Shown: positions 1-12,553, numbered from the stretch's first letter. The stretch is 64,000 nt of DNA from Planctomycetota bacterium (GCA_046290465.1 JBKAGP010000001.1:2176001-2240000); one strand, 5' to 3'. Notes: generated from the sequence alone by a model not told the origin. Made by a program: numbers and translations.

Positions 1-125
1 GTGGAAACGTCTCCACAACGACCACCCAGAACGCCCCGGTCAACGCAACGAGCCACGTGCAGCAGCAGGCTGCACGTGGCTCGTCGTCGCGGCTCGCGGA
101 CCGTCGTCCGCAGCACGTCGCGAAG

Positions 126-644
126 CTAGTCGAACAGGTTGTCGAGCTTGTTCTTCGCGTCCGAACCAAACTCCTCGTCGAGGCCTTCGTCGATCGGCTC
201 GCGGTTCAACGCGTCGCGGTAGATGTCGGCGAGCTTCTTGGCGGTCTCACCCGCGTAGAGGCGCACCATGCCGACCGTCGTGCGGTCGTCGAACAGGATC
301 GTCAGCAGCGTGCGGTCCCCCACCAGCGAGAGCTGGATGTTGTCGCGCTCACCCTGGTGGAACATCGCGGTGAACTCCTCTTCGCCGAGCAGCCGCGCCA
401 TCTCCTTGGTCGCCGCGAACGAACCGGCGACCAGCGCCGAGATCGTGTCGATGTCGATCGTGCGCAGCTCGCCGCGCTTGGTCACCAGGTGACCTTCCTT
501 GTCGATCAACAGCGCGCACTTGGCGCCACTGAGTCGCAGGAACTCGGCAAGCAGCTTGTCGATGCGATCGATGTCCTCCTTGTAGAAGGTCAGCCGATCG
601 TGTCGCAGGCGTTGGTTCTGCGACATCGCTTTGGAATCAGACAT
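126..644 (-). CDS. mglB: MglB-type roadblock/LC7 protein (putative GAP of MglA)
   Basis: Roadblock pattern 'ALLIDKEGHLV...ISALVAGSFAATKEMARLLGEEEF..MFHQGERDNI...TTVGMVRLY' resembles Myxococcus MglB; adjacent to mglA. Confidence 0.9.
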   Translation of the reverse strand: MSDSKAMSQNQRLRHDRLTFYKEDIDRIDKLLAEFLRLSGAKCALLIDKEGHLVTKRGELRTIDIDTISALVAGSFAATKEMARLLGEEEFTAMFHQGERDNIQLSLVGDRTLLTILFDDRTTVGMVRLYAGETAKKLADIYRDALNREPIDEGLDEEFGSDAKNKLDNLFD

Positions 645-650
645 GTGCGA

Positions 651-1610
651 TCAGAACTGGGGGTTGCCGAAGACGAAGTAGGCGACACCGGCAGCCGCCA
701 CGAGCAGCGTGACGGTCAGCCCGACGACCAGTCCGACGCCACCCTTCTTCGGCGCGGGGCTGTTCGCAGCGGGCCGCGCCGCGTTGCGGCGGCCGTTGTT
801 GGCCGGGCGCGCGCCCTTCTGGGCGCCGGCCGGCGGAGCCCCCGCCTTGCGCTTGCGCGGCGCGCCCTTCGGGCCACCGGCAGCGGGTCGGGCGGCAGCG
901 CGCTTCTGCGGCGCGCGCGCCTTCGGAGCGGCAGCCGGAGCGGCGGCAGGCGCCGCAGCGGGCGCGGCAGCGACCGGCGCAGCGGCCGGCTCGGCGGCCG
1001 GCGCCGGCTTGCGCGGGCTGCGGCCGTCGATCTTCTCGATGCTCTCCAGCACCATCGCGGCCAGCGTCTTCAGCGTGGGGAACACGCCTTCCCCGGTGTA
1101 GGCGACCGCCTCGAAGGTCGGCACGCCGAACTTGTTCATGATCTTGTCGATCTCGGCGACCGGCAGCGCGTTCGGCAGGTCGCGCTTGTTGTACTGGATG
1201 ACGTGCGGCAGCTCGCGGATGTCCTTGCCGTACTCGGCGAGGTTCTCGATCAGGTTCGCGTAGCTCTCGACGTTCTCGTCCATCTTGTCCGGATCGGAGT
1301 CCGCGACGAAGATGACGCCGTCGACGCCCTGCAGCACCAGCTTGCGGGTCGAGTTGTAGTAGACCTGACCAGGCACCGTGTAGAGCTGGAACTTGGTCCG
1401 CATGCCCGCGACGTTGCCGAGGTCGAGCGGCATGAAGTCGAAGAACAGCGTGCGGTCGCCGTCGGTCGAGATCGACGTCAGCTCCCCCTTGTTCTCTTCA
1501 GGGGCCTTTTGATGCACGATCTCGAGGTTGGTGGTCTTGCCACTCATACCCGGACCGTAGAACACGACCTTGCAGTTGACTTCCTTGAGCGCGAAGTTGA
1601 TCTGGACCAT
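651..1610 (-). CDS. mglA: MglA-family Ras-like GTPase with Ala/Pro-rich linker and C-terminal transmembrane helix
   Basis: MVQINF start; motifs YGPGMSGKTTN, DRTLFFD, TVPGQ, NKRD, EAVA; hydrophobic C-terminus GLVVGLTVTLLVAAAGVAYFVF. Confidence 0.93.
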   Translation of the reverse strand: MVQINFALKEVNCKVVFYGPGMSGKTTNLEIVHQKAPEENKGELTSISTDGDRTLFFDFMPLDLGNVAGMRTKFQLYTVPGQVYYNSTRKLVLQGVDGVIFVADSDPDKMDENVESYANLIENLAEYGKDIRELPHVIQYNKRDLPNALPVAEIDKIMNKFGVPTFEAVAYTGEGVFPTLKTLAAMVLESIEKIDGRSPRKPAPAAEPAAAPVAAAPAAAPAAAPAAAPKARAPQKRAAARPAAGGPKGAPRKRKAGAPPAGAQKGARPANNGRRNAARPAANSPAPKKGGVGLVVGLTVTLLVAAAGVAYFVFGNPQF

Positions 1611-1811
1611 GGTTGGCGCGTCCGCGTGGTGTTGCCTTCGTGTCGACGAACTCGACACTTCTCAGGTGCCTGTTCATCGGACGAACGACGGGCCAGGCTT
1701 GAGTCTGCGGCGCAAATCGTCGCAACCTGAACCGTCGTTCCGGGACACCCCGAAGTCGTCGGCACGGCGGTGCCGGTGCGGCCGTTCGCGCAGGGCGCGA
1801 TGGCAACGCGA

Positions 1812-2171
1812 TCAGGCGAGCCGCGACGCGCGGCGGATGCGGGTGACCGCCTCGTCAACCTCGCGGTCGGCCTGGTCGATCTCCGCGAACTGGTCGAACA
1901 ACACGACCAGGTAGCTGTCGTCGAGCTGGACCAGCACGGCCTTGCCGTGGGTCGCGTTGAGCAGCAGCTTGGTGCAGACGCCGTAGCCGCCCTCGTCGAG
2001 GCTGCGGTTGGTCGTCATCATCAGGTAGGACGACAGGCCCGAGATCACGTCCGGGTCCAACCCGGTCGCCAGCGACGACGCCGCGACCAGACCGTCCCTG
2101 GTCACGACGGCGGCGCCGCGCACGCCGGGGGCGTGCCGCAGCTCGGCGATGGCATCCTGGATCTTGCTCAT
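1812..2171 (-). CDS. Roadblock/LC7 domain protein
   Basis: 119 aa with 'PGVRGAAVVTRDGLV' roadblock signature; GGAG RBS; in mgl operon. Confidence 0.85.
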   Translation of the reverse strand: MSKIQDAIAELRHAPGVRGAAVVTRDGLVAASSLATGLDPDVISGLSSYLMMTTNRSLDEGGYGVCTKLLLNATHGKAVLVQLDDSYLVVLFDQFAEIDQADREVDEAVTRIRRASRLA

Positions 2172-2173
2172 GG

Positions 2174-3271
2174 CTACTCCTCCACCGCGTGCAGTGCGCC
2201 CGCGACGATCTCCTGCAGCTCGGCCAGCACCGCTTCGACGTCGGCGCCGGCGGTGACCTGCGCGGCGGCGAGGGCCTCGCCGTAGACGCAGATGCAGATG
2301 CGACCGTAGTCCCCTTCGATGATGGTCTTGGCGGCGCTACCGATGTCGAGGCGACGGGCGAACCGGTGGGCCGCCTTGGCCGACACGCGCACGATGCGCA
2401 AGAACGGGTCGCGCCCGTCCTTGATCGCGCCCTTGACCATCGCCTTCGAACCGCGGATGAACGTCGCCTTCTGCACCCCTTCGAGCTCGGCGACGCTGGC
2501 GAGGCCAGCGCGCACCGAGGCCACCGACTGGCCGCTGCTGGCGGCCTTCGGCTCGACCTTCAGCGAAGGATGCAGCAGCGAGCCGTGCGACTCGACCTCG
2601 TCGAGCAGCGAGTCGAGGTTGCCGCCCTTGTCGGCAAGGCTCGCGACGTGCGTCAGCAGCTGGTCGAGTTCGGGGTCGTCCGGTTCGAGTTCGTGCAGCG
2701 CCTGCAGGTGCTTCTGGGCCTCGCCGACGGCGCCGACGCGGTAGAGCACCTCGCTCAACAGACGACGCGACTGCGCCTCGTCCGGATCCATGCCGACGGC
2801 ACGCTCGAGACACTGCACGGCCTCCATGCCCTCGCGCGCGGCGAGGTCGCGGTAGAAGCTGGTCAGGCGCGCCTGGCCGAGCACGAGCCAGCAGCCCGCG
2901 TCGTCGGGGAACCGCAGGCTCCACTCCTGGCACAGCTGGTGCAGCGCGTTGTTGTCGCCGAGCTCGACGTGGATCATCGCCAGCTCGCGGAACAGCTTGG
3001 GGTTCGGCGAACGGGTCAGCTTGGCGCGCAGTTCGTTGGCGCGGCGGTTGCGGAGCCCGCGACGAGCGCAGTCCAGCAGCTGCCGCAGCTCGATCGACTT
3101 CGGGAACAGCGCGATGCCGTCCTCGGCCATGTGCTCGGCCTTGTCGTGCAGGTCGAGGTTGATGTAGACCTGGCCGAGGTCGACGAACGTCGACGGCGAC
3201 GGCTGCTCCTTGGCCCGCTGCTCGAGGCGGCGCAGCTCCTTCCAGATCTTCATTCGCTGGATCAGGTGCAT
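2174..3271 (-). CDS. TPR protein with C-terminal roadblock-like domain
   Basis: GGAG RBS then MHLIQRMKIW; TPR-like helical repeats; C-terminal ~110 aa 'VAELEGVQKATFI...RRLDIGSAAKTIIEGDYGRICI' resembles roadblock fold. Confidence 0.7.
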   Translation of the reverse strand: MHLIQRMKIWKELRRLEQRAKEQPSPSTFVDLGQVYINLDLHDKAEHMAEDGIALFPKSIELRQLLDCARRGLRNRRANELRAKLTRSPNPKLFRELAMIHVELGDNNALHQLCQEWSLRFPDDAGCWLVLGQARLTSFYRDLAAREGMEAVQCLERAVGMDPDEAQSRRLLSEVLYRVGAVGEAQKHLQALHELEPDDPELDQLLTHVASLADKGGNLDSLLDEVESHGSLLHPSLKVEPKAASSGQSVASVRAGLASVAELEGVQKATFIRGSKAMVKGAIKDGRDPFLRIVRVSAKAAHRFARRLDIGSAAKTIIEGDYGRICICVYGEALAAAQVTAGADVEAVLAELQEIVAGALHAVEE

Positions 3272-3279
3272 CGCATCTC

Positions 3280-6200
3280 CTAGCGGAACAGGACCACCTG
3301 GCCCTCGGGTGTCGGCATCGCGACGGACATGCCGTCGACGCCGAGCGGGCCCGGGCCGTTGTCGGAAAGGGCGAACTCCCACAGCACGCTGGCGGTCGCC
3401 GCGTCGATCGCGACCAGCGCTTCGTGCACCGGCTTGTCGGTCGAACGCGGTCGGCGCACGCGCGCGAACGCGCGACCGCCCTGGGTGGCGAGGCCCATCA
3501 CCAGGTCGTCCATCGCGACCGCACCGACCTCGTTCCCGCTGGCGCGGTCGAACGAGACGATCCGGCCCTCGGCGACGACCACGACCCGGTCCGAGGTCAT
3601 CGCCAGGTCGCGGTCGCTCGGCGTGCGGCCGATCGACTGCGTCCACAGCACCTTGCCCGCTTCGAAGTCGACCGCCCGGACCGCGCCGTCGGCGCAGCCG
3701 AACACGATCAGCTTGCCGTCGACGTGGATGCGCGTGGTCACGCCCGCCGGACTGCGCAGCACGCCGAGGCTCTTGCCGTCCGACACGTCGAACACCATCA
3801 CCCGGCCGTCCAGCGTGCCGACGTAGGCCTTGCGGCGCACGATGGTCGGCGGCCCCGACGGCGCGTCGCCGAGCGACACGCCCCAGAGGCGGCGCCCGCT
3901 CGACTGCTCCCAGCAGTGCAGCACGTTGCCGTTGTCGATCAGCGCGACGCGGCCGTCGCCGAGCACCAGCGAGGTCTGCGCATCGGCCTCGAGCTTGACC
4001 GGCCAGTTGCCGGCACGCACGCTCGGGTCGACCGGCACGCACTCGATCGTGCCCTCGTTGCTGAGGAAGAAGATCCTGCCGTTGGCGACTGCCGGGGTCG
4101 CGTCGACCGCCTTGAGGCCGGTCAGCTCGCGCACCTGGCGGTTGGTGCCGTCAGTGCGGGCGAAGCCGACGCGGCCGCCGCGCAGGCCGAGCGCGACCCA
4201 GCCGTCGCCGACGCCGACGCCGGTCTGCGCCGGCGTGCCGAACTCGACGACGTGCTCGGGCACGACCGCCATCACCACTTCGACCTCGGCCGACTCACGG
4301 CCGTTGACGACGATCTCCTGCTCCTCGAAACCCTCGAGCTTCGCGGTCAGCCGCACCGGCTGGTCGGCCTGGCAGAGCACCAGACCGGGCGTCAGCACCG
4401 GCTCCTGACGGCCGTCCACGACGCGCATCAATGGCTTGCCGTCGTGCATCAGCTGGGCACCCGGCGGCCGGGTCGTGACCGTGACCGGGACCCGCACGCG
4501 GCGGCCATCGGCGGTCCGTTCGAAGTCGGTCTGCAGCTGCAGCGCGACCTTCCGCGCCTTGCCGAAGTCCCCGGTCGCGACCGCGGCGTCGTAGGCGGCA
4601 CCGAGCTCCTTCGCCTTGGCGAGGAACTCGCTGAGGTTCTTCCAGGTCAGCTGCACCTTCTGCTCGTGCGCCCACTCGACGTCGACGGCACTGCCGGCCT
4701 CCTTGACCAGCTCGCGGACCTGCTCGATCGAAGCCAGCGCCTGCTCGGGGTTGCCGCCGAGGAACTGCTCGCGGTGGCGGTTCCAGGCCGTCTTGTACTT
4801 CTTGCGCAGGCCGTTGAGGTGCGCGTCGCGCGCCGCCTTCTCGGACGCGAGCCGCGCCTCGAACATCTCCTGCGCGGAGGTGATCTTCTGCAGCTCCGCC
4901 TCGGCCTTCGAGATCGAGGTCGTCAGCGGGTGCTGCGCGATGAAGTCGGCGTAGCGCGCCTTGGCGCCGGCGAAGTCCTCGGTCGCGACCAGCTCGGTGA
5001 CGTCGATCGCGGCGAAGTCCTCCTGCGCGCGCTCGTTGTAGAACCAGTAGCCCGAGCCGAGCACCAGCAGCAGGCAGAACATCACCGCCAGCACGCTCAG
5101 CGCGCGGCTGCGCTTGCGCGACCGCTCGTCGAACTCGTAGAGGCGCCGGACCCGCTCCGAGATGTCGGTGCGGCTGCGATCCAGCAGCAGGATCTTCTGC
5201 AGGTAGCTGACCGCTTCGAGCGGCTTGTTGCGACGCACCAGGTCGTCGGCGATCGACTCGTAGAGCTGCACGACCCGCTTCTGGTCGCCGGCGCGCACGT
5301 GCACGTTGACCAGCGCCTTCTTGAGGTCCGGGTCGTTGGGCTCGACCAGCAGCAGTCGCTCGAGCAGCGCGCGCACGCGCTGGATGTCGCCGAACTCGGT
5401 CAGCAGGTCGACCAGCTCCTTGCCCTCGGCCAGCGCGTCGAAGCCGTCCAGGCGCACGCCGTCGGGGCCGACGCACAGCTCGACCAGGCGTTCGCGCGCC
5501 CCGAGGTTGGTCGGCACCAGCTGGCGCACCTCGCTGAGGCAGCGCGCCGCGCCGTCGAAGTCCTGTTGGCCGATGCGATGCTCCGCCTCGGACTCGAGAT
5601 GGTAGATGGCCAGTTCGTACTGCTCGGCGGCCTGGTAGGCGCGCGCGGCCAGCGCGTGGCTGTCGGGAAGGCCGACGCCGACCTCGATGGCGCGCTCGTA
5701 GAGCGCGATCGCGTCCTGCAGGCGGCCCTCGCCCATGCACTCGTCCCCGAGCGCGATCAGGTCCTCCTCGGCGATCGGCGCGACCACGCCGGCGTCGAGG
5801 AACTGGCTGAGCGTCTTGCAGACCAGGAAGTTGGTCAGGCCGGTCAGCTCGCAGACGCGGGCGACGTTGCGGCGACCGTCGAGCAGTTCGAAGATCGCAG
5901 GGCCGTCGGTGCCGTATTCCTCACCCTCGATGTAGTCCGCGGTCGCGACCAGGATCTCCGCCGTGCTCGGGATCCGCTCGGTGATGTAGGCCCACTCGTC
6001 GATGCGACGGGCGGCCTCCATGATGATGCTGTCGCAGTTGAAGAAGAACCGCTCGTCGATCGCCCCGTCGCGGCCTTCCAGTTCGGTGGTGTTCTCGTGG
6101 AACTCGAACTTGGCGTCGCTGTTGAAGAAGAGGTCGTAGATCTCCTCCTCGAGCTCGATGCGGTACTGGTATTCGAGTTCGCTCTGCTCGAGATACCCGC

Positions 6201-6483
6201 CGGCGAGCAGGCTGTCGGCCAGCGACTGCCCCATGCGAACGGCATGATCACGGACTTCGTCGACCGACTCCTCGAGCAGGCGGCCGGAGCGCACGCTGGC
6301 GGCGACGACCTTGTCGAGCAGCCGGTGCACGTTGTGGTGCACGGTGACACCACGCTGATCGAAGTACAGAACCTTCCACAGCTTGGCAGAATGGATGCTC
6401 AGCAGGCCGACCTTCTTGTTGAGGGCCAGCATCTGGAACACCTGGGCCAGATCTACACTGGCAAGATCCCCTCGTAGTGCCAT
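3280..6483 (-). CDS. DUF4388 / TPR / TM / PEGA-like / PQQ-type beta-propeller membrane protein
   Basis: N-terminal 'LRGDLASVDLAQVFQML...KKVGLL' and 'IIMEAARRIDEW' (DUF4388); TPRs; TM LSVLAVMFCLLLVLGSGYWFY; 'TTRPPGA...KLEGFE' (PEGA-like); repeated 'GxxLW' propeller blades. Confidence 0.8.
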   Translation of the reverse strand: MALRGDLASVDLAQVFQMLALNKKVGLLSIHSAKLWKVLYFDQRGVTVHHNVHRLLDKVVAASVRSGRLLEESVDEVRDHAVRMGQSLADSLLAGGYLEQSELEYQYRIELEEEIYDLFFNSDAKFEFHENTTELEGRDGAIDERFFFNCDSIIMEAARRIDEWAYITERIPSTAEILVATADYIEGEEYGTDGPAIFELLDGRRNVARVCELTGLTNFLVCKTLSQFLDAGVVAPIAEEDLIALGDECMGEGRLQDAIALYERAIEVGVGLPDSHALAARAYQAAEQYELAIYHLESEAEHRIGQQDFDGAARCLSEVRQLVPTNLGARERLVELCVGPDGVRLDGFDALAEGKELVDLLTEFGDIQRVRALLERLLLVEPNDPDLKKALVNVHVRAGDQKRVVQLYESIADDLVRRNKPLEAVSYLQKILLLDRSRTDISERVRRLYEFDERSRKRSRALSVLAVMFCLLLVLGSGYWFYNERAQEDFAAIDVTELVATEDFAGAKARYADFIAQHPLTTSISKAEAELQKITSAQEMFEARLASEKAARDAHLNGLRKKYKTAWNRHREQFLGGNPEQALASIEQVRELVKEAGSAVDVEWAHEQKVQLTWKNLSEFLAKAKELGAAYDAAVATGDFGKARKVALQLQTDFERTADGRRVRVPVTVTTRPPGAQLMHDGKPLMRVVDGRQEPVLTPGLVLCQADQPVRLTAKLEGFEEQEIVVNGRESAEVEVVMAVVPEHVVEFGTPAQTGVGVGDGWVALGLRGGRVGFARTDGTNRQVRELTGLKAVDATPAVANGRIFFLSNEGTIECVPVDPSVRAGNWPVKLEADAQTSLVLGDGRVALIDNGNVLHCWEQSSGRRLWGVSLGDAPSGPPTIVRRKAYVGTLDGRVMVFDVSDGKSLGVLRSPAGVTTRIHVDGKLIVFGCADGAVRAVDFEAGKVLWTQSIGRTPSDRDLAMTSDRVVVVAEGRIVSFDRASGNEVGAVAMDDLVMGLATQGGRAFARVRRPRSTDKPVHEALVAIDAATASVLWEFALSDNGPGPLGVDGMSVAMPTPEGQVVLFR

Positions 6484-6601
6484 GGGCGGTGCGTCGGTGC
6501 GAGTAGCGGTCAGTCCCGGCTTCCCCTATCGACCAGCGCGCTTACGACCCTGAGCCAGGGTCGGACCGGCTCGGGATTTCTTCGGAGCCAGACGCGACGG
6601 C

Positions 6602-6630
6602 TTGCCGTCCGGTCGTGCCTGACATAGTCT
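6602..6630 (+). promoter_or_regulatory. Putative sigma70-type promoter (TTGCCG-N17-TAGTCT)
   Basis: -35/-10-like hexamers with 17-nt spacing, 9 nt before ATG 6640. Confidence 0.5.
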
Positions 6631-6639
6631 CTTCGCCCA

Positions 6640-7476
6640 ATGCCCTCCCTGAGCCGAGTGTTCGCCATCGCCCGCGCCAGCGCGCATTCCGCGCTCGGCT
6701 GGGTCGCGTACCGATTCGGCTGGCTGGGACCCGCGAGGCGGCAGTACGAACGCGTGCTGCTGCTGCGAGGCGCCGACTTCCAGGCCTACGTCCACCTCGG
6801 ACGGATCGCGTTCGACCAGGGCGACTACGCCGGCTGGCGGCGCGAGTTCGAACACGCGCGGCGCACCGACCCGATCCGCTTCGCCCGCCTGCGCCACCCG
6901 CTGGAGTTGTTCGAGCCCCGTCTGGCCGGCACCCAGTTCGACCCGCACGGCCTGGTCGACCCGACCGCGCCCGACGACGGCGACGGCTTTCAGGCCACCG
7001 ACGCCCGGGCGACCTGGCGCAGCCTGCACCCGTTCGGGCAGCGGCCGCGCGACGCCAGTGCCGGTGAGGGCTTCGGCCGCGGCATCGACCTGCCGCTGGC
7101 GCCGGGCTACGACCCGATGATGCCGGGCCAGCAGCTCGACGACCGCGACCCTGCCCATCCCCTGGGGGACGATCCGATCGGGGACGACCTCTCGAGGGAC
7201 GATCCCAATCGCAGCGACCGGGATCGTGCTGGCCGCAAGCATTCGGGTCCGGAGCGACACGACGACGTTCCCGCCGACGACCTGCAGGAGAGCGCGGATC
7301 CGTTCGCGCAGGAGCGACAGCATCCGCTGCCGCCGCCGCCGCCGGACGCGTCGCTGACCCGCGACGACTTCTCGTCGCCGTCGGAGCGACGCCGCTTCCA
7401 GCTGCGCCGACCGATCGACCGCCAGGAGATCGCGCGTTGCGACCTCAACGATCTGGCGCGCCGGCTGTCGGGCTGA
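6640..7476 (+). CDS. Hypothetical protein: N-terminal TPR-like pair, acidic disordered middle, short C-terminal motif
   Basis: 'ARRQYERVL...FQAYVHLGRIAFDQGDYAG' TPR-like; GC3-biased codons. Confidence 0.65.
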   Translation: MPSLSRVFAIARASAHSALGWVAYRFGWLGPARRQYERVLLLRGADFQAYVHLGRIAFDQGDYAGWRREFEHARRTDPIRFARLRHPLELFEPRLAGTQFDPHGLVDPTAPDDGDGFQATDARATWRSLHPFGQRPRDASAGEGFGRGIDLPLAPGYDPMMPGQQLDDRDPAHPLGDDPIGDDLSRDDPNRSDRDRAGRKHSGPERHDDVPADDLQESADPFAQERQHPLPPPPPDASLTRDDFSSPSERRRFQLRRPIDRQEIARCDLNDLARRLSG

Positions 7477-7537
7477 GTCGGGTCGACGCGCCCCAGGCTT
7501 GTAGTCCCACCCGCTCCGCGGGAGAGTTGCGCCGCGC

Positions 7538-10162
7538 ATGCCCGACCAGAACCCGCTGCTGACGATCGCGCTGCTGCTTGGCGCCGGCGCCGCCATGCAG
7601 TGGCTGGCGTGGCGCCTGCGGGTGCCGGCGATCCTGTTCCTGCTGCTCGCCGGCTTCGCCGCCGGACCGATGCTGGGCTGGTTCCGGCCCGAGGACACCT
7701 TCGGCGAACTGTTCCGCCCGCTGGTCTCGCTGGCGGTCGGCATCATCCTGTTCGAGGGCGGACTGACGCTGCGCTTCCACGAACTGGGCGGGGCCGGCAG
7801 CGTCGTCACCCGGCTCTGCTCGATCGGCGCCGCGGTCAGCTGGATCCTGACGACGCTGGCGGCGCAGTGGATCGTCGGGGTCAGCTTCGAGGTTGCGCTG
7901 CTGGTCGGCGCGATCCTGGTGCTGACCGGCCCGACCGTGGTGATCCCGCTGGTCCGGCACGTCCGGCCGCGCAAGCCGCTCGGCCCGATCCTGCGCTGGG
8001 AGGGCATCCTGATCGACCCGATCGGCGCGGTGCTGGCGCTGCTGGTGCTGGAGGCGCTGACCGGCCACGACAGCGCCGGCGACATCACGCTCGGCATCGC
8101 CAAGACGCTGATCTACGGCGGCGGCCTCGGCGCGCTCGCCGGCTGGCTGCTGGCGCTGGCGCTCGAACGATTCGCGATCCCCGACCGCCTGCACGTGCCG
8201 GTGACGTTCGGCACGGTCGGCATGTCGTTCGCGCTCGCCAACACGATGCAGCCCGAGGCCGGCCTGCTGGCGGTCACCGTGATGGGCATCGTGCTCGGCA
8301 ACCGCAAGAAGCTCGACGTCGACCACGTGCTCGAATGGCACGAACCGCTGGTCACGATGCTGCTGGCGCTGTTGTTCGTGACCATCGCCGCGCGCCTCGA
8401 GCTCGAGACGCTGACCAGCCTCGGCCTGCTCGCCGTGCTGTTCACCGTCGTGCTGATCGTCGTCGTGCGGCCGGTCGCGGTCGCGCTGAGCACGGTCGGC
8501 ACGTCGTTGAAGTGGGGCGACCGCGCGTTCCTGATGGCGATGGCGCCGCGCGGCATCGTGGTCGCGGCGGTCAGCTCCGAGTTCTCGCTGCACCTCGACC
8601 ACTACGGCGTGGCCGGCGGCCAGGAGGTGATCGCGCTGGTGTTCCCGGCGATCGTGCTGACCGTGGTCGTCTACGGCTTCGGCGCGCGGCCGTTCGCGCG
8701 CGCGATCGGAGCGGCGCAGGCCGACCCGCAGGGCGTGCTGCTGGTCGGCGCCGGCCTGCTCGGCCGCGAGCTCGGCCATGCGCTGCAGAAGCAGGGCTAC
8801 GACGTGCTGCTGGTCGACACCAACGCCTCGCACACGACGACCGCACGCACCTCGGGCCTGCCGACGTTCCACGGCAGCGCGCTGTCGCAGCGCTTCACCG
8901 AGGAGGCGAGCCTCGACGGCATCGGCAACCTGATGACGCTGACCTCGAGCGACGAGATCAACCGGCTGGCGATCGAGCAGTTCCTGCCGACGTTCGGCCG
9001 CCCGCACCTGTTCCGGGTCGCGTCGTCGAGCACCCACCGCAAGGAGGAGGGCCACGACGGCCGCACGCTGTTCGCGCACGACCTCGACGTGCACACGCTG
9101 CGCTCGATGCTGCAGCGCGGCGACCGGATCCGCGCGACCAAGCTGACCGAACAGTTCGGGCCCGACGCCTACCGCGAACGCCACGGGGAACACGCGCGGC
9201 CGTTGTTCGTGATCTCCGCCGACCGCGAACTGCAGATCGTCACCGCCGACGCGCCGCCGACGCTGAAGGTCGGCCAGACCGTGCTCGCGATCGTGCCGAG
9301 CGAAGAGCCGACCGACGCGCCGGCCGAGGCACCTTCGAAGGAGGCGCCGTCGAAGCCGCAGGCCGGCAAGCAGGATGGCGACAAGCAGGGAGCATCGAAG
9401 CCGGTGCCGTCCACGCAGGAACCTACCACGCAGGAACCTCCGCCGCAGCAACCTTCGAAGCAGGCACCGCCCACGAAGGCCCCGCCCTCGCAGGCGGACG
9501 CATGGCGGCAGCTCCCACTCAGGTGCGTCGCATCGCCTCGACCGCCTTGGCGAGCCGCGCCAGGGCTCGCTGCGTGCGCATGCGCACGGCGTCGGCCTGC
9601 AGGCCGAGGCGCTCGGCGATCGCCGGGTAGTCGAGGCCCTGCCAGACGCGCAGTTCGAGCACCTCGCGATCGGAGGCCGGCAGCCGCTCCATCGCCGCGC
9701 GGATCCACTCGACGCGTTCGCGCTTGTCCGCCGACTCGCTCGGCCGGGTCACCGAGTGCTGCGGACGGCCGCCGACCCACGAGCTGTCGGCGTGCAGCGA
9801 CTGCTCGCGGTTGCGGTTGCGACGCTCCCGCATGGTCCAGCGCACCCGGTCGAGCAGGTCCTTCTCGAGCACGTGCACCAGCAGCGCGCGCAGGTGCTCG
9901 AGGTCCTTGGCCTGCCGGACCGCCGGCGCCTTCAGCAGCCGCACGACCACGTCCTGCAGGAAGTCCTCGCTGTCGAACTCGCGGCGCAGCTCCGGCCGCA
10001 GCCGCCGGCGCACCCGCTCGCGCAGCCACGGCAGGTTGCGCGTCACCAGCGCGTGCAGCGCCGCGTCGTCGCCGCCGCGCGCGCGCTGCAGGAGCTCGGT
10101 GTCATTGCGGTCGTCGGGCACGTCGCGCACCCCTCCAGGATCTGCCGACATCCTCGCGCTGA
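7538..10162 (+). CDS. NhaP-type (CPA1) cation/proton antiporter with TrkA-N-like domain; biologically meaningful part probably ends near 9505
   Basis: Many TM helices; 'ILFEGGL', 'TGPTVV', 'RWEGILIDPIGA', 'APRGIVVAA'; Rossmann-like 'LLVGAGLLG'; beyond ~9505 the ORF is antisense to an ECF gene. Confidence 0.85.
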   Translation: MPDQNPLLTIALLLGAGAAMQWLAWRLRVPAILFLLLAGFAAGPMLGWFRPEDTFGELFRPLVSLAVGIILFEGGLTLRFHELGGAGSVVTRLCSIGAAVSWILTTLAAQWIVGVSFEVALLVGAILVLTGPTVVIPLVRHVRPRKPLGPILRWEGILIDPIGAVLALLVLEALTGHDSAGDITLGIAKTLIYGGGLGALAGWLLALALERFAIPDRLHVPVTFGTVGMSFALANTMQPEAGLLAVTVMGIVLGNRKKLDVDHVLEWHEPLVTMLLALLFVTIAARLELETLTSLGLLAVLFTVVLIVVVRPVAVALSTVGTSLKWGDRAFLMAMAPRGIVVAAVSSEFSLHLDHYGVAGGQEVIALVFPAIVLTVVVYGFGARPFARAIGAAQADPQGVLLVGAGLLGRELGHALQKQGYDVLLVDTNASHTTTARTSGLPTFHGSALSQRFTEEASLDGIGNLMTLTSSDEINRLAIEQFLPTFGRPHLFRVASSSTHRKEEGHDGRTLFAHDLDVHTLRSMLQRGDRIRATKLTEQFGPDAYRERHGEHARPLFVISADRELQIVTADAPPTLKVGQTVLAIVPSEEPTDAPAEAPSKEAPSKPQAGKQDGDKQGASKPVPSTQEPTTQEPPPQQPSKQAPPTKAPPSQADAWRQLPLRCVASPRPPWRAAPGLAACACARRRPAGRGARRSPGSRGPARRAVRAPRDRRPAAAPSPRGSTRRVRACPPTRSAGSPSAADGRRPTSCRRAATARGCGCDAPAWSSAPGRAGPSRARAPAARAGARGPWPAGPPAPSAAARPRPAGSPRCRTRGAAPAAAAGAPARAATAGCASPARAAPRRRRRARAAGARCHCGRRARRAPLQDLPTSSR
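9519..10121 (-). CDS. ECF sigma-70 factor (kinase-associated type), module A
   Basis: 'LLQRARGGDDAALHAL', 'FDSEDFLQD', region 4 'LPASDREVLELR..GLDYPAIAERLG...AVRMRTQRAL'; GGAGG RBS before GTG (alternative ATG 10151). Confidence 0.9.
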   Translation of the reverse strand: MPDDRNDTELLQRARGGDDAALHALVTRNLPWLRERVRRRLRPELRREFDSEDFLQDVVVRLLKAPAVRQAKDLEHLRALLVHVLEKDLLDRVRWTMRERRNRNREQSLHADSSWVGGRPQHSVTRPSESADKRERVEWIRAAMERLPASDREVLELRVWQGLDYPAIAERLGLQADAVRMRTQRALARLAKAVEAMRRT

Positions 10163-10258
10163 CAAGCCGCGCCGGTGCACGACGGGATTTTTCTGTTCGC
10201 CTCGGCGCGCCGACGGCGAGTCCTCGGGTGGCGCCACCTCCGGCGCGTGAGGATTCCA

Positions 10259-12553
10259 ATGCAAGACCAACCGACCGCATGTGCAAACCCGGCAACCCAG
10301 GCACCGCTTGGGCTGCTGATGTCCCTGTCCCTCAGCGGCCTGCTCGCCGCGCAGGCCCCCGCTACCACCGACGCTCCGATCCCGCTCGAGGGCGCCTTCC
10401 GCGCGCCGCTGCACCGCGAGGACGGCGGCGGCATCGCGCTGTGGGGTTCGCATGATGCCTACAAGGTCCGCGTCGACGCGGACGGCGCGACGTTCACTCC
10501 CGCGCTCGGCATGCAGCGCCCCCAAAACCTCCCGGTGCACTGGCGCACGACCGCGCTCGGCGGCCAGCCGACCGGCGCAGCGACCGCGGTCGGGCACACC
10601 GACTGGCGCGCCGAACTGCAGCACGACGGCGTCGTCGAGGCCTACGACCTGCGCGCCGACGGCCTCGAACAGACGTTCGTGTTCGCCGCGCAGCCGCAGC
10701 TGCCGGGCGGCGACGACTATCGCATCGAAGGCGTGATCAGTTCGCCGCTGCACGCGGCCGCGCGCCGCCCGGCGCACGCGCCGATCACCTTCACCGACGC
10801 GGCCGGCGACGCGGTCGTCCGCTACGGCGCCGCGATCGCGATCGACGCCCATGACCGCCACCTGCCCCTGGCGACGTCGTTCGACGGCGAACGGCTGAGC
10901 ATCCACGTGCCGACCGACTGGCTGCGGCAGGCCGCCTACCCGGTCGTGGTCGACCCGCTGCTGTCGCGCGTCACCGTCGTCGCCGGCTCGTCGGGTTCGG
11001 TGCTGACGGTGCAGACCGCCGTCGACGACGACAACGACCGCATGGTGGTCGCGTACTCGCGCGCCATCTCGGCCAGCGACCTCGACGCGTTCGCCCGCCG
11101 CACGTCGCTGAACTTCGGCCTGACCTCGCTGATCTACGTCGAGAACGGCACCACCTCGACCAAGGACGTCTCGGTCGCCTGGTCGGACTCCGACGACCAA
11201 TGGCTGCTCGCGTTCGGCATGCAGAACGCCAACTCGAGCTGGGTGCGCATCCACCTGCACCCGACCGCCAGCTCCAGCACGCAGGGCGGCTCCAACCTGA
11301 CCGTGCCGCAGCCGGGCGGCTACGAGTACCAGCGCCCGGTCGTCTCCGGCCACACCACCCGGCCGCTCGGCTATGTCGTGTTCGAACGCGATGCCGGCGT
11401 CGGCCAGCCGGACACCAACTCGACCGAGGTCTACGGCGCGCGCATCGACACCAGCAACGCGCAGATCGGCGTACCGGTGCGGATCTCCGACGTCGGCACG
11501 CTCGATGCGCAGCGGCCGTCGATCTGCCAGCGCGCCGTGTCCAACGACCTGTGGTTCGTGGCCTGGCAGGAACGCAACCCGCAGCTGCCCAACGACGACT
11601 GGGACATCCGGGTCTGCCGCATCGACGACCAGAACAACGTCGAGCCGCCGCAGTCGCTGCCGATCGACAACAGCAACGGCCTGCACTCGTTCCAGCCCAA
11701 GGTCGACAGCGACATCTCGGACTACGGTGTCGCGTTCCTGACGCGCCCCGTCGACAACAACCCGGTGACGATGGTCGGCACCCGCCTGCGCCTGCAGCGG
11801 TTCTACATCCCGGCTTCGGGCGTGCCGTCGTCGGTGTCGGCGACCGACATCGAGGTCGCAGCCGAGGCCACCGCGCGCGTCGAACTGCACGACGCCTCGC
11901 GCAGCTTCGCGATGAACGAGGAGGCCGAGGACCACGGCGTCGTCGTCTGGCGCCGCCTCGGCAGCTGGTCCAACGGCGTGCCGACCAGGCTGATGGCCGC
12001 GCGCTTCGGCTACGAGAGCAACCCGCTCGAGGTCGTCGAGCTCGAGTCGTCGACCAGCCTGGTGTCACCCTACGGTTCGGTCTCGGCGACCTACGACCGT
12101 AACGACGACGGCTTCCCGCTCAGCTACGGCGGCACAGGCCTGTCGAGCAACGCGGTCTGGGGCCGCCGCTTCGACATGCCGGACGCCCAGTCGATCGCCT
12201 ACGGCGGCTCGTGCGCCGGCACGCTGGTGACGTCGGTGCGGCCGTGGGCCGGCACGCAGTCGTACCGGTTCCGCCTGCAGGCCTCCAACCCCAACGCCGC
12301 CAGCTGGCTGTGGGCGTCGCTGGCCCCGGCCAACCTGCCGCTGCCCGGACTGACGCAGTGCCCGGTGTTGCTCGACCCGACCGCCGCGCCGGTCATCGTC
12401 GACCAGGACTTCTCGACCAACCTCGGCACGGCGTTCTTCTACTTCGACCTGCCGGCGGTCGCCGCCGGCATGGACATCTACTGGCAGGCGATGCAGCTGA
12501 ACCTCGGCAACCTGTTCGCGATGTCGAACGGGCTGAAGACCGAGATCCGCTGA
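10259..12553 (+). CDS. Secreted protein with YPxxxDP-type N-terminal region and shared ~110-aa C-terminal domain
   Basis: GAGGA RBS; signal peptide ending LLAA|Q; 'GLEQTF...AYPVVVDP'; C-terminus 'YGGSC...IYWQA...SNGL'. Confidence 0.8.
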   Translation: MQDQPTACANPATQAPLGLLMSLSLSGLLAAQAPATTDAPIPLEGAFRAPLHREDGGGIALWGSHDAYKVRVDADGATFTPALGMQRPQNLPVHWRTTALGGQPTGAATAVGHTDWRAELQHDGVVEAYDLRADGLEQTFVFAAQPQLPGGDDYRIEGVISSPLHAAARRPAHAPITFTDAAGDAVVRYGAAIAIDAHDRHLPLATSFDGERLSIHVPTDWLRQAAYPVVVDPLLSRVTVVAGSSGSVLTVQTAVDDDNDRMVVAYSRAISASDLDAFARRTSLNFGLTSLIYVENGTTSTKDVSVAWSDSDDQWLLAFGMQNANSSWVRIHLHPTASSSTQGGSNLTVPQPGGYEYQRPVVSGHTTRPLGYVVFERDAGVGQPDTNSTEVYGARIDTSNAQIGVPVRISDVGTLDAQRPSICQRAVSNDLWFVAWQERNPQLPNDDWDIRVCRIDDQNNVEPPQSLPIDNSNGLHSFQPKVDSDISDYGVAFLTRPVDNNPVTMVGTRLRLQRFYIPASGVPSSVSATDIEVAAEATARVELHDASRSFAMNEEAEDHGVVVWRRLGSWSNGVPTRLMAARFGYESNPLEVVELESSTSLVSPYGSVSATYDRNDDGFPLSYGGTGLSSNAVWGRRFDMPDAQSIAYGGSCAGTLVTSVRPWAGTQSYRFRLQASNPNAASWLWASLAPANLPLPGLTQCPVLLDPTAAPVIVDQDFSTNLGTAFFYFDLPAVAAGMDIYWQAMQLNLGNLFAMSNGLKTEIR

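Follow-up and report, generated by a model that had tools for sequence, protein, structure and literature searches.

The window analysed here is a 64,000-nucleotide stretch (C1:2176001-2240000) of a Planctomycetota genome of 6.59 Mb and 70% GC in a single contig, and on its minus strand, from position 6483 down to 126, it carries five co-oriented genes built around MglA, a small GTPase, and MglB, its partner, labelled in order A, B, C, D (MglA) and E (MglB). The main feature of this operon, overlooked in an earlier note made from the DNA alone, is a predicted extension of MglA beyond its G domain: a long low-complexity tether ending in a C-terminal transmembrane (TM) helix. The operon is real and conserved; it is a variant of the MglA/MglB switch that is apparently unpublished. 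It is read here as a membrane-held Group 1 MglA that would mark where a pilus-type surface motor acts, a reading given a probability of about one half; we infer the roles of MglA's partners and the output of the system, for which a pilus motor is the best guess.

MglA (651..1610, minus strand; 319 amino acids (aa), Pfam Arf/Ras/Gtr1) is taken to start at the ATG at 1610 because its homologues share this start and begin MVQINF; the GTG at 1658 was rejected for the same reason. The G domain occupies residues 1-195 (1026..1610) and is followed by a 96-aa tether (738..1025) containing 37 Ala, 19 Pro and 20 Arg/Lys, and then by the predicted anchor (651..737), a TM helix at residues 292-314 with a Kyte-Doolittle value of 2.37, basic residues before it, and five residues and the stop codon after it. 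Comparison was made with 102 non-identical MglA homologues (loci L032-L171), a sample weighted to the window's own family in which three sequences run off contigs and 99 are complete. A C-terminal TM helix is present in 93 of the 99, and in 84 of these 93 Lys and Arg are more numerous before the helix than after it, a positive-inside bias; the linker varies in both sequence and length (77-278 residues, median 112). Six complete homologues have no TM helix. L037 was not taken as a true loss, being a frameshift whose tail continues in another frame, and L147 was left aside because it is an orphan paralogue; the others are the operon copies L164, L165, L168 and L169. In three loci (L135, L156 and L226) a further low-complexity stretch, presumably periplasmic, follows the TM helix, with 57-76 residues in L135 and L156.

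Operon copies without a TM helix carry another kind of C-terminal helix. In a class of low GC (31-40%; the class of genome G109), MglA was found in 9/9 genomes, with 2-9 matches each at E<=1e-20, and all eight readable operon-linked copies are without a TM helix; the ninth genome is 59% complete and yielded no operon copy. These eight copies end in a basic helix, P-[ILV]-F-[KR]-K-[FL]-x-K, with a hydrophobic moment of 0.70-0.85, compared to a baseline from linker windows with a 99th percentile of 0.62 and a maximum of 0.80, and the motif is absent from the orphan MglA paralogues of the same genomes. A separate branch of two genomes also has a basic, amphipathic-looking C-terminal helix instead of a TM helix; the tail of L211 ends in GFLGRLF (moment 0.86) and that of L169/L176 in GFVGFLKGLF, both of which we take to be similar to MinD's membrane-targeting sequence. 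A tree of 53 operons was made from the G domain, MglB and C with tails excluded (midpoint root, weak backbone); on it, each of two models requires two changes to account for the nine amphipathic-tail rows, and a single clade of the nine is rejected (approximately unbiased test, p-AU 0.0016); judged from this tree, the amphipathic-looking helix arose at least twice and a single origin is rejected. As the other 44 rows carry a TM helix, the direction of change would be from TM to amphipathic, and two separate swaps to another membrane-seeking helix make membrane attachment look like a selected trait. Membrane attachment is thus the probable job of the tail, with the tether well supported by sequence and evolution, and the firmest membrane link of the operon appears to be MglA's own tail and not gene A. 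MglA-like proteins are also numerous in genomes G047, G109 and G076 (L172-L201), with 11, 11 and 15 matches per genome respectively; some have degenerate motifs, and some are fused to pentapeptide repeats, STAS-TIR, LRR or GYF domains.

The G domain is, by its sequence, of the Group 1 type with intact catalytic motifs. It matches M. xanthus MglA (5ymx) at E 2e-73 with the same numbering of Gly21, Arg53, Thr54 and Gln82, and the G1, Arg53-Thr54, TVPGQ and NKxD motifs, which read GPGMSGKT, Arg53-Thr54, TVPGQ82 and NKRD in the window, are kept in 102/102 homologues. Group 1 is defined by the G1 motif GxxxxGK[ST], an Arg finger beside the G2 Thr, TVPGQ and NKxD (PMC4316618). An mglB within four genes is also expected of the group, and here mglB begins 6 bp past the mglA stop; the size limit of a single domain of 150-240 aa is exceeded, with tether and TM helix bringing MglA to 319 aa. 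The G domain is on these features a Group 1 member, and the full-length MglA an extended variant. Phe57 and Phe59, which take part in the contact between MglA and MglB (PMC3199381), are retained in the homologue alignment. The genome has a second MglA (C1:6585626-6587500, plus strand; 624 aa), an apparent histidine kinase fusion with Ser at the Arg53 position; a match of similar score and frame length is seen in many genomes of the order.

It is well established that GTP hydrolysis by MglA is completed by an MglB dimer, which positions Arg53 and Gln82 of the GTPase. Gene E (126..644, minus strand; 172 aa) is probably this MglB, the GTPase-activating protein (GAP) for MglA: it matches Robl_LC7 at E 2e-14, and its profile matches M. 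xanthus MglB (6izw) at E 6e-36 over profile positions 12-167, including the C-terminal helix (window 129-197). Asp48 and Gly51, the Asp-x-x-Gly of coupled MglBs, are invariant in 18/18 sequences, and in helix alpha2 Ala70, Ala73, Gly74 and Ala78 are invariant; on the NCBIfam MglB model NF052242, whose name suggests the Thermus type, E scores 109 bits, short of the cut-off of 200. The likeness to the Myxococcus MglA/MglB/MglC and Thermus MglA/MglB systems (5ymx, 6izw, 3t12) lies in the G domain, in an MglB with a C-terminal helix and in a second Roadblock bearing the Asp-Gly pair of MglC. The planctomycete system differs in several respects, as MglA of Myxococcus and Thermus is a soluble 195-aa protein, whereas the planctomycete form adds a long tether and membrane anchor; the gene coordinates bear out the order mglA-mglB that had been pointed out before, the reverse of mglBA in Myxococcus; and the operon, unlike those of Myxococcus and Thermus, also encodes a TPR-Roadblock fusion and a membrane-spanning PATAN-TPR-propeller protein. 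Elsewhere, three MglB-like matches follow mglA in tandem (L112:744-2500).

Three Roadblock-type domains accompany the one GTPase, namely the C-terminus of B, the whole of C, and E, as the earlier note had proposed. Gene B (2174..3271, minus strand; 365 aa) consists of a TPR array (window 2585-3265, with TPR helices at residues 3-229 in the model; Pfam, model) followed by a divergent Roadblock (window 2180-2536, residues 246-364; profile, model and fold comparison). The AlphaFold model of this Roadblock has alpha-beta-beta-alpha-beta-beta-beta-alpha topology with a mean pLDDT (predicted local distance difference test) of 86.8, and the C-terminus aligns with 3kye at Z 14.3 (root-mean-square deviation 2.3, 114 residues aligned) and with M. 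xanthus MglB (6hjm) at Z 13.1. Its profile matches that of C with 94% probability (E 1e-7) and gives no match to the MglB profile of E (0.6%). A Foldseek search with the B model returned TPR proteins only, among the matches listed, and the Roadblock surfaced in a wider search. Owing to the model fold and the profile match to C, the third Roadblock is regarded as real, and the prediction that B would fold as a Roadblock at its C-terminus has held. Its helix alpha2 is basic, with a mean net charge of +3.9 over 72 homologues; as alpha2 is the face by which MglB binds MglA (PMC3199381), B is unlikely to be a second GAP. Database labels of B homologues are generic TPR or Roadblock names (best 120 of 397). 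In one locus (L048:8057-8620), gene B is little more than the Roadblock part.

Gene C (1812..2171, minus strand) is a stand-alone Roadblock of 119 aa (Robl_LC7 E 1e-8), and genome-wide there are two Robl_LC7 matches, both inside this operon. Its Asp26-Gly27 pair is well kept (Asp in 93/101 and Gly in 100/101 homologues) and is shared with M. xanthus MglC. Such a pair is a signature of MglC-type Roadblock paralogues (PMC4719450), although it also marks MglBs of Groups 2-5 and hence is not specific to MglC (PMC4316618). The C profile matched 33 solved sequences; M. xanthus MglC was absent from them, which was not counted against membership of the MglC type; the best solved relatives of the profile are Asgard Roadblocks and LAMTOR2. 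There are seven precedent cases of two Roadblocks coupled to one Group 1 mglA (PMC4719450).

Gene A (3280..6483, minus strand) encodes a predicted single-pass membrane protein of 1067 aa (hydropathy, Pfam, model), modelled with a mean pLDDT of 86.3 and a predicted template modelling score (pTM) of 0.48. From the N-terminus there is a cytoplasmic PATAN/DUF4388 domain (window 5974-6483, residues 4-165; Pfam E 6e-17), which scores 62 bits on PF14332 against a cut-off of 25 and is present in 17/17 aligned homologues, then a winged-helix-like part in the structure model, a TPR array (window 5107-5769, residues 239-459; Pfam, model) and the TM helix (window 5047-5103), identified by hydropathy and falling in a low-confidence segment of the model. 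Outside the membrane, the model places a helical region (window 4498-5046), a PEGA-like beta-sandwich (window 4273-4491, residues 665-737) and an eight-bladed propeller (window 3283-4254; PQQ_2 E 4e-21) whose best Foldseek match is eight-bladed BamB (E 5e-16). Of the domain families named beforehand, Robl_LC7 (in C and E), DUF4388 and PQQ_2 (in A) were recovered by profile search; the PEGA assignment survives as the small beta-sandwich of the model but not as a Pfam match, which the window protein does not give and 4/17 aligned homologues do. On the BamB model TIGR03300, A scores 69 bits against a cut-off of 285, and its propeller forms the last part of a single-pass protein of 1067 aa, not a stand-alone outer-membrane lipoprotein.

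The following distribution counts cover Planctomycetota. MglA was found in 37/41 genomes of the order and in 170/301 genomes drawn across the phylum; loci were then fetched from the positives for family spread, 20 in the order and 40 phylum-wide. The order loci read ABCDE in 14/20, the others being contig ends, loci with a short A (L049, L050) or a B trimmed to its Roadblock (L048). Phylum-wide, the arrangements are ABCDE (18), BCDE (11), BCDEA (3), ABCDEA (2), ABCD (2) and one each of BCD, D, DEA and ACDE, so that B-C-D are adjacent in 37/40 loci and the synteny anticipated in relatives is indeed conserved. A adjoins the core in 27/40, sometimes downstream, and is the most mobile part of the set. 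Of the 301 genomes, 158 have both A and MglA, 12 have MglA only, 8 have strong A only and 123 have neither, this last group taking in 11 weak A matches (E near 1e-22); the 'noA' tree labels from a strict filter were not used in the counts. The link between a membrane-spanning A and MglA drawn in the earlier note thus stands as co-occurrence (158/170 MglA genomes), while A as the operon's firmest hold on the membrane does not. Six of the 12 MglA-only genomes belong to one family, f10, whose loci as read bear a short A. The search for MglA came back empty in 121 genomes of G043's class, and the same query was positive in other classes; two genomes of the G043 class have 53-57 DUF1559 matches compared to 0 in the window genome, and since a high DUF1559 count presumably points to Planctomycetia, the class is probably Planctomycetia, which holds the laboratory models. 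With B as query, five genomes of the order without MglA yielded no more than partial TPR matches.

In the proposed mechanism, MglA's C-terminal helix, on the flexible tether, would keep the protein at the cytoplasmic membrane, on the inner face; the adjacent MglB would switch MglA off, and B, C and A would position it. As an anchored MglA would be unable to shuttle from pole to pole through the cytoplasm in the way the Myxococcus protein does, patterning would arise, as with Ras, by lateral diffusion and the local GTP/GDP state. C may tether or tune MglB in the manner of MglC. B may, like SgmX, use its TPRs to bind MglA-GTP, its basic Roadblock pairing with C or with the membrane. From the periplasm, A would set the site, and it would relay the signal through PATAN to a PilB/PilC-type motor. 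The comparison behind B and A is with SgmX of M. xanthus and Bd2492 of Bdellovibrio, TPR effectors of MglA-GTP that stimulate pili, the likeness being TPR arrays in an MglA operon. SgmX links MglA-GTP to type IV pili and is a protein of 1060 aa for which neither a TM helix nor a Roadblock is reported (PMC7519303), compared with A and B by description. The N-terminus of A belongs to the same domain family as cyanobacterial PATAN regulators such as PixE and as M. xanthus SgnC, and PATAN, which is DUF4388, binds PilB1 and PilC in Synechocystis (10.1101/2021.06.11.447907); PixE-type regulators carry a receiver domain, whereas in A the PATAN stands at the head of a single-pass membrane protein that also has TPRs, a PEGA-like sandwich and a propeller. 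The window genome encodes four PilT over cut-off, nine flagellin matches and MreB, and the few loci with prepilin motifs close to the operon or A (6/172) also speak for a pilus output. In the same genome, a flagellin match stands directly after two PilT-like ATPase matches (C1:4754148-4756907), and four flagellin matches lie in tandem (C1:4657406-4661254).

Several observations weigh against a membrane-held switch that directs a pilus motor. No conserved pilus or gliding neighbourhood was found around the operon, and prepilin motifs occur near the operon or A in 6/172 loci and in none of the other 166. Clustering of neighbours over 85 loci, with clusters labelled from one representative each, gave glycine cleavage, MetG, kinase and response-regulator genes as the recurrent flanks, that is, housekeeping and general signalling. 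PilT is present in 5/5 MglA-lacking genomes, so no co-loss of PilT with the operon was seen, and the pilus motor does not need the operon. At the interface of MglA and MglB, the C-terminal helix of M. xanthus MglB aids nucleotide exchange through MglA Lys181 and Lys185 (PMC6785124); in the homologues Lys181 is kept in 72/72 and Lys185 in only 5/72, a partial loss of the pocket for this helix, and the window MglB has Lys80-Glu81 where M. xanthus alpha2 has Gly-Gly. One of the amphipathic-looking tails, that of L169/L176, has a moment of 0.51, below the linker 99th percentile. Regarding gene A, it is absent beside the core in 13/40 phylum loci, paralogues exist away from MglA, the short f10 form (~400 aa; TPR, TM, outer helices) is without PATAN or propeller, and no co-occurrence statistic was given because related genomes are not independent. 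Examples of the short f10 gene are L049:126-1409 and L050:4874-6097.

The same membrane-bound switch could instead control envelope shape rather than pili, marking domains for invagination, crawling, fission or prey uptake as a Ras/Rab/Arf-like identity mark, with the Roadblocks of B and C as a Ragulator-like scaffold. This is considered possible though not probable. It would fit the shortage of pilus genes in most flanks, the likeness of the C profile to Asgard Roadblocks and LAMTOR2 (which is, however, generic among Roadblocks), and the class with 31-40% GC, in which the anchor has gone from integral to peripheral, MglA is expanded to 2-9 copies per genome, and fusions to pentapeptide, STAS-TIR, LRR and GYF domains occur. 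Planctomycetia have extensive membrane invaginations, which counts against envelope shape as the output, as the search of the probable Planctomycetia class did not turn up the operon. Predatory planctomycetes have a GC content of ~34-39%, and some divide by poles walking apart (10.64898/2026.10.26.761892); the low-GC class is nevertheless linked to these predators by GC content alone, and the operon also occurs in many lineages of ordinary GC. A broader form of this idea is that non-model Planctomycetota define their membrane domains by means of a Ras-like membrane GTPase, Ragulator-like Roadblocks and a transmembrane scaffold, with the low-GC lineage, possibly engulfing predators, having a reversible amphipathic anchor and an expanded GTPase family; the system would then control crawling, walking-apart division and phagocytosis-like uptake, and represent convergence on the eukaryotic Ras/Rab design. 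Taken as a whole, this is speculative and rather unlikely.

A further alternative concerns gene A, since the core of B, C, MglA and MglB could be self-contained, with A a co-regulated envelope scaffold that does not touch MglA, its BamB-like propeller tied to the inner membrane and perhaps serving outer-membrane protein or pilus assembly. The loci without A beside the core, its downstream position in some others, its presence without MglA in 8 genomes (in one of which, L202, it comes after pseudopilin-like genes), the match of its propeller to BamB and the second full-length A of the window genome, far from any mglA, all speak for such a separation. Set against this, A tracks MglA in 281/301 genomes, a relocated A often lies directly after mglB (BCDEA, ABCDEA and DEA; 6/40), and even the short A of f10 retains the TPR nearest the membrane together with the TM helix and a short helical part outside, leaving a self-contained core improbable. 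As for the copies themselves, the full-length paralogue (C1:850684-854304, plus strand; 1206 aa) has no mglA nearby and lies near a Ser/Thr kinase gene, and two further DUF4388 matches occur in the genome (C1:1141745 and C1:4559163). In L202:6156-14471, A follows pseudopilin-like, PilX-like and HEAT-repeat-like genes and precedes MurG-like and amidase-like genes, all labelled by eye.

The weakest alternative, a conservon-like transmembrane signalling cassette in which the propeller would be a sensor for an external ligand and the GTPase would pass the signal on to kinases or transcription, polarity playing no part, is very doubtful despite the receptor-like layout of A, the histidine kinase fused to the genome's second MglA and the recurrence of kinase and response-regulator genes near the operon (8/85 and 16/85 loci, respectively), as both gene families are large and group across loci through general similarity, the conserved core has no kinase or DNA-binding output gene, and the GTPase is of Group 1 (TVPGQ, Arg53). 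Actinobacterial conservons (CvnA-D) resemble the operon in being membrane-associated sets of small GTPase, Roadblock and membrane protein; they have a Group 2 MglA (GTPGQ, no Arg finger) and the histidine-kinase-like CvnA, neither of which is in the planctomycete operon.

In further comparing the anchored MglA to eukaryotic systems, the likeness to Ras/Rab and Rag-Ragulator lies in the G domain, the flexible variable tail, the membrane anchor and the several Roadblocks; K-Ras4B with its polybasic tail and the tail-anchored Miro are eukaryotic examples of anchored GTPases. The anchor of Ras/Rab is a lipid, whereas the planctomycete protein joins a bacterial G domain (TVPGQ, Arg finger) to a TM or amphipathic helix, and the likeness to eukaryotic anchored GTPases is most likely convergence. 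One study of Asgard archaea speculated that the Rab tail arose during eukaryogenesis (PMC10933270), so that a GTPase with a variable tail and interchangeable anchors is a layout which that study places at eukaryogenesis.

No account of a planctomycete operon with an anchored MglA was found in the literature, with most subscription papers beyond the search. The characterised MglAs of the reference survey are single-domain proteins of 176-239 aa, the survey's cut-off was 240 aa, and planctomycetes are not mentioned in it (PMC4316618). This length cut-off, along with the failure to find MglA in the probable model class, may explain why the form seems unstudied. A preprint on engulfing planctomycetes reported no conserved eukaryotic phagocytosis protein; the category 'small GTPase' is omitted from its list, and neither Mgl nor Roadblock appears in the main text (10.64898/2026.10.26.761892). 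The operon offers a specific candidate for the control of polarity, movement and reshaping in non-model planctomycetes, and, if the reading as a membrane-bound switch is true, the set would likely choose the sites on the cell surface at which pilus-type or shape-changing machinery is active.

The planctomycete origin supposed by the earlier note agrees with the named genomes among the best 80 MglB loci, of which 76 are planctomycetes; the remaining four and a few titles of 'uncultured bacterium' give no phylum, one being labelled CL500-15. The five genes have a GC content at third codon positions (GC3) of 0.89-0.97, and the intergenic gaps are 8 (A-B), 2 (B-C), 201 (C-D) and 6 bp (D-E). No Rfam family was found in window 1-7500, no sigma-70-like promoter was found, and terminator-like sites are at chance level (4 compared to 2.8 expected). 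Divergent from the operon is a gene of 278 aa (window 6640-7476, plus strand) whose N-terminus gives weak TPR matches and whose middle is acidic and of low complexity. Further along lie a Na+/H+ exchanger with TrkA-N and a probable secreted protein of ~765 aa without significant Pfam match (window 7538-12553), and an ECF sigma factor (window 9519-10304, minus strand). Glycine cleavage genes stand near the operon in 9-12/85 loci (L032-L051, L133, L134, L148, L159), which is probably old chromosomal synteny. Just outside the window, downstream of mglB, is a short histone-like open reading frame of Lys/Ala repeats (C1:2175550-2175795, minus strand), and beyond it a convergent gene for methionyl-tRNA synthetase.

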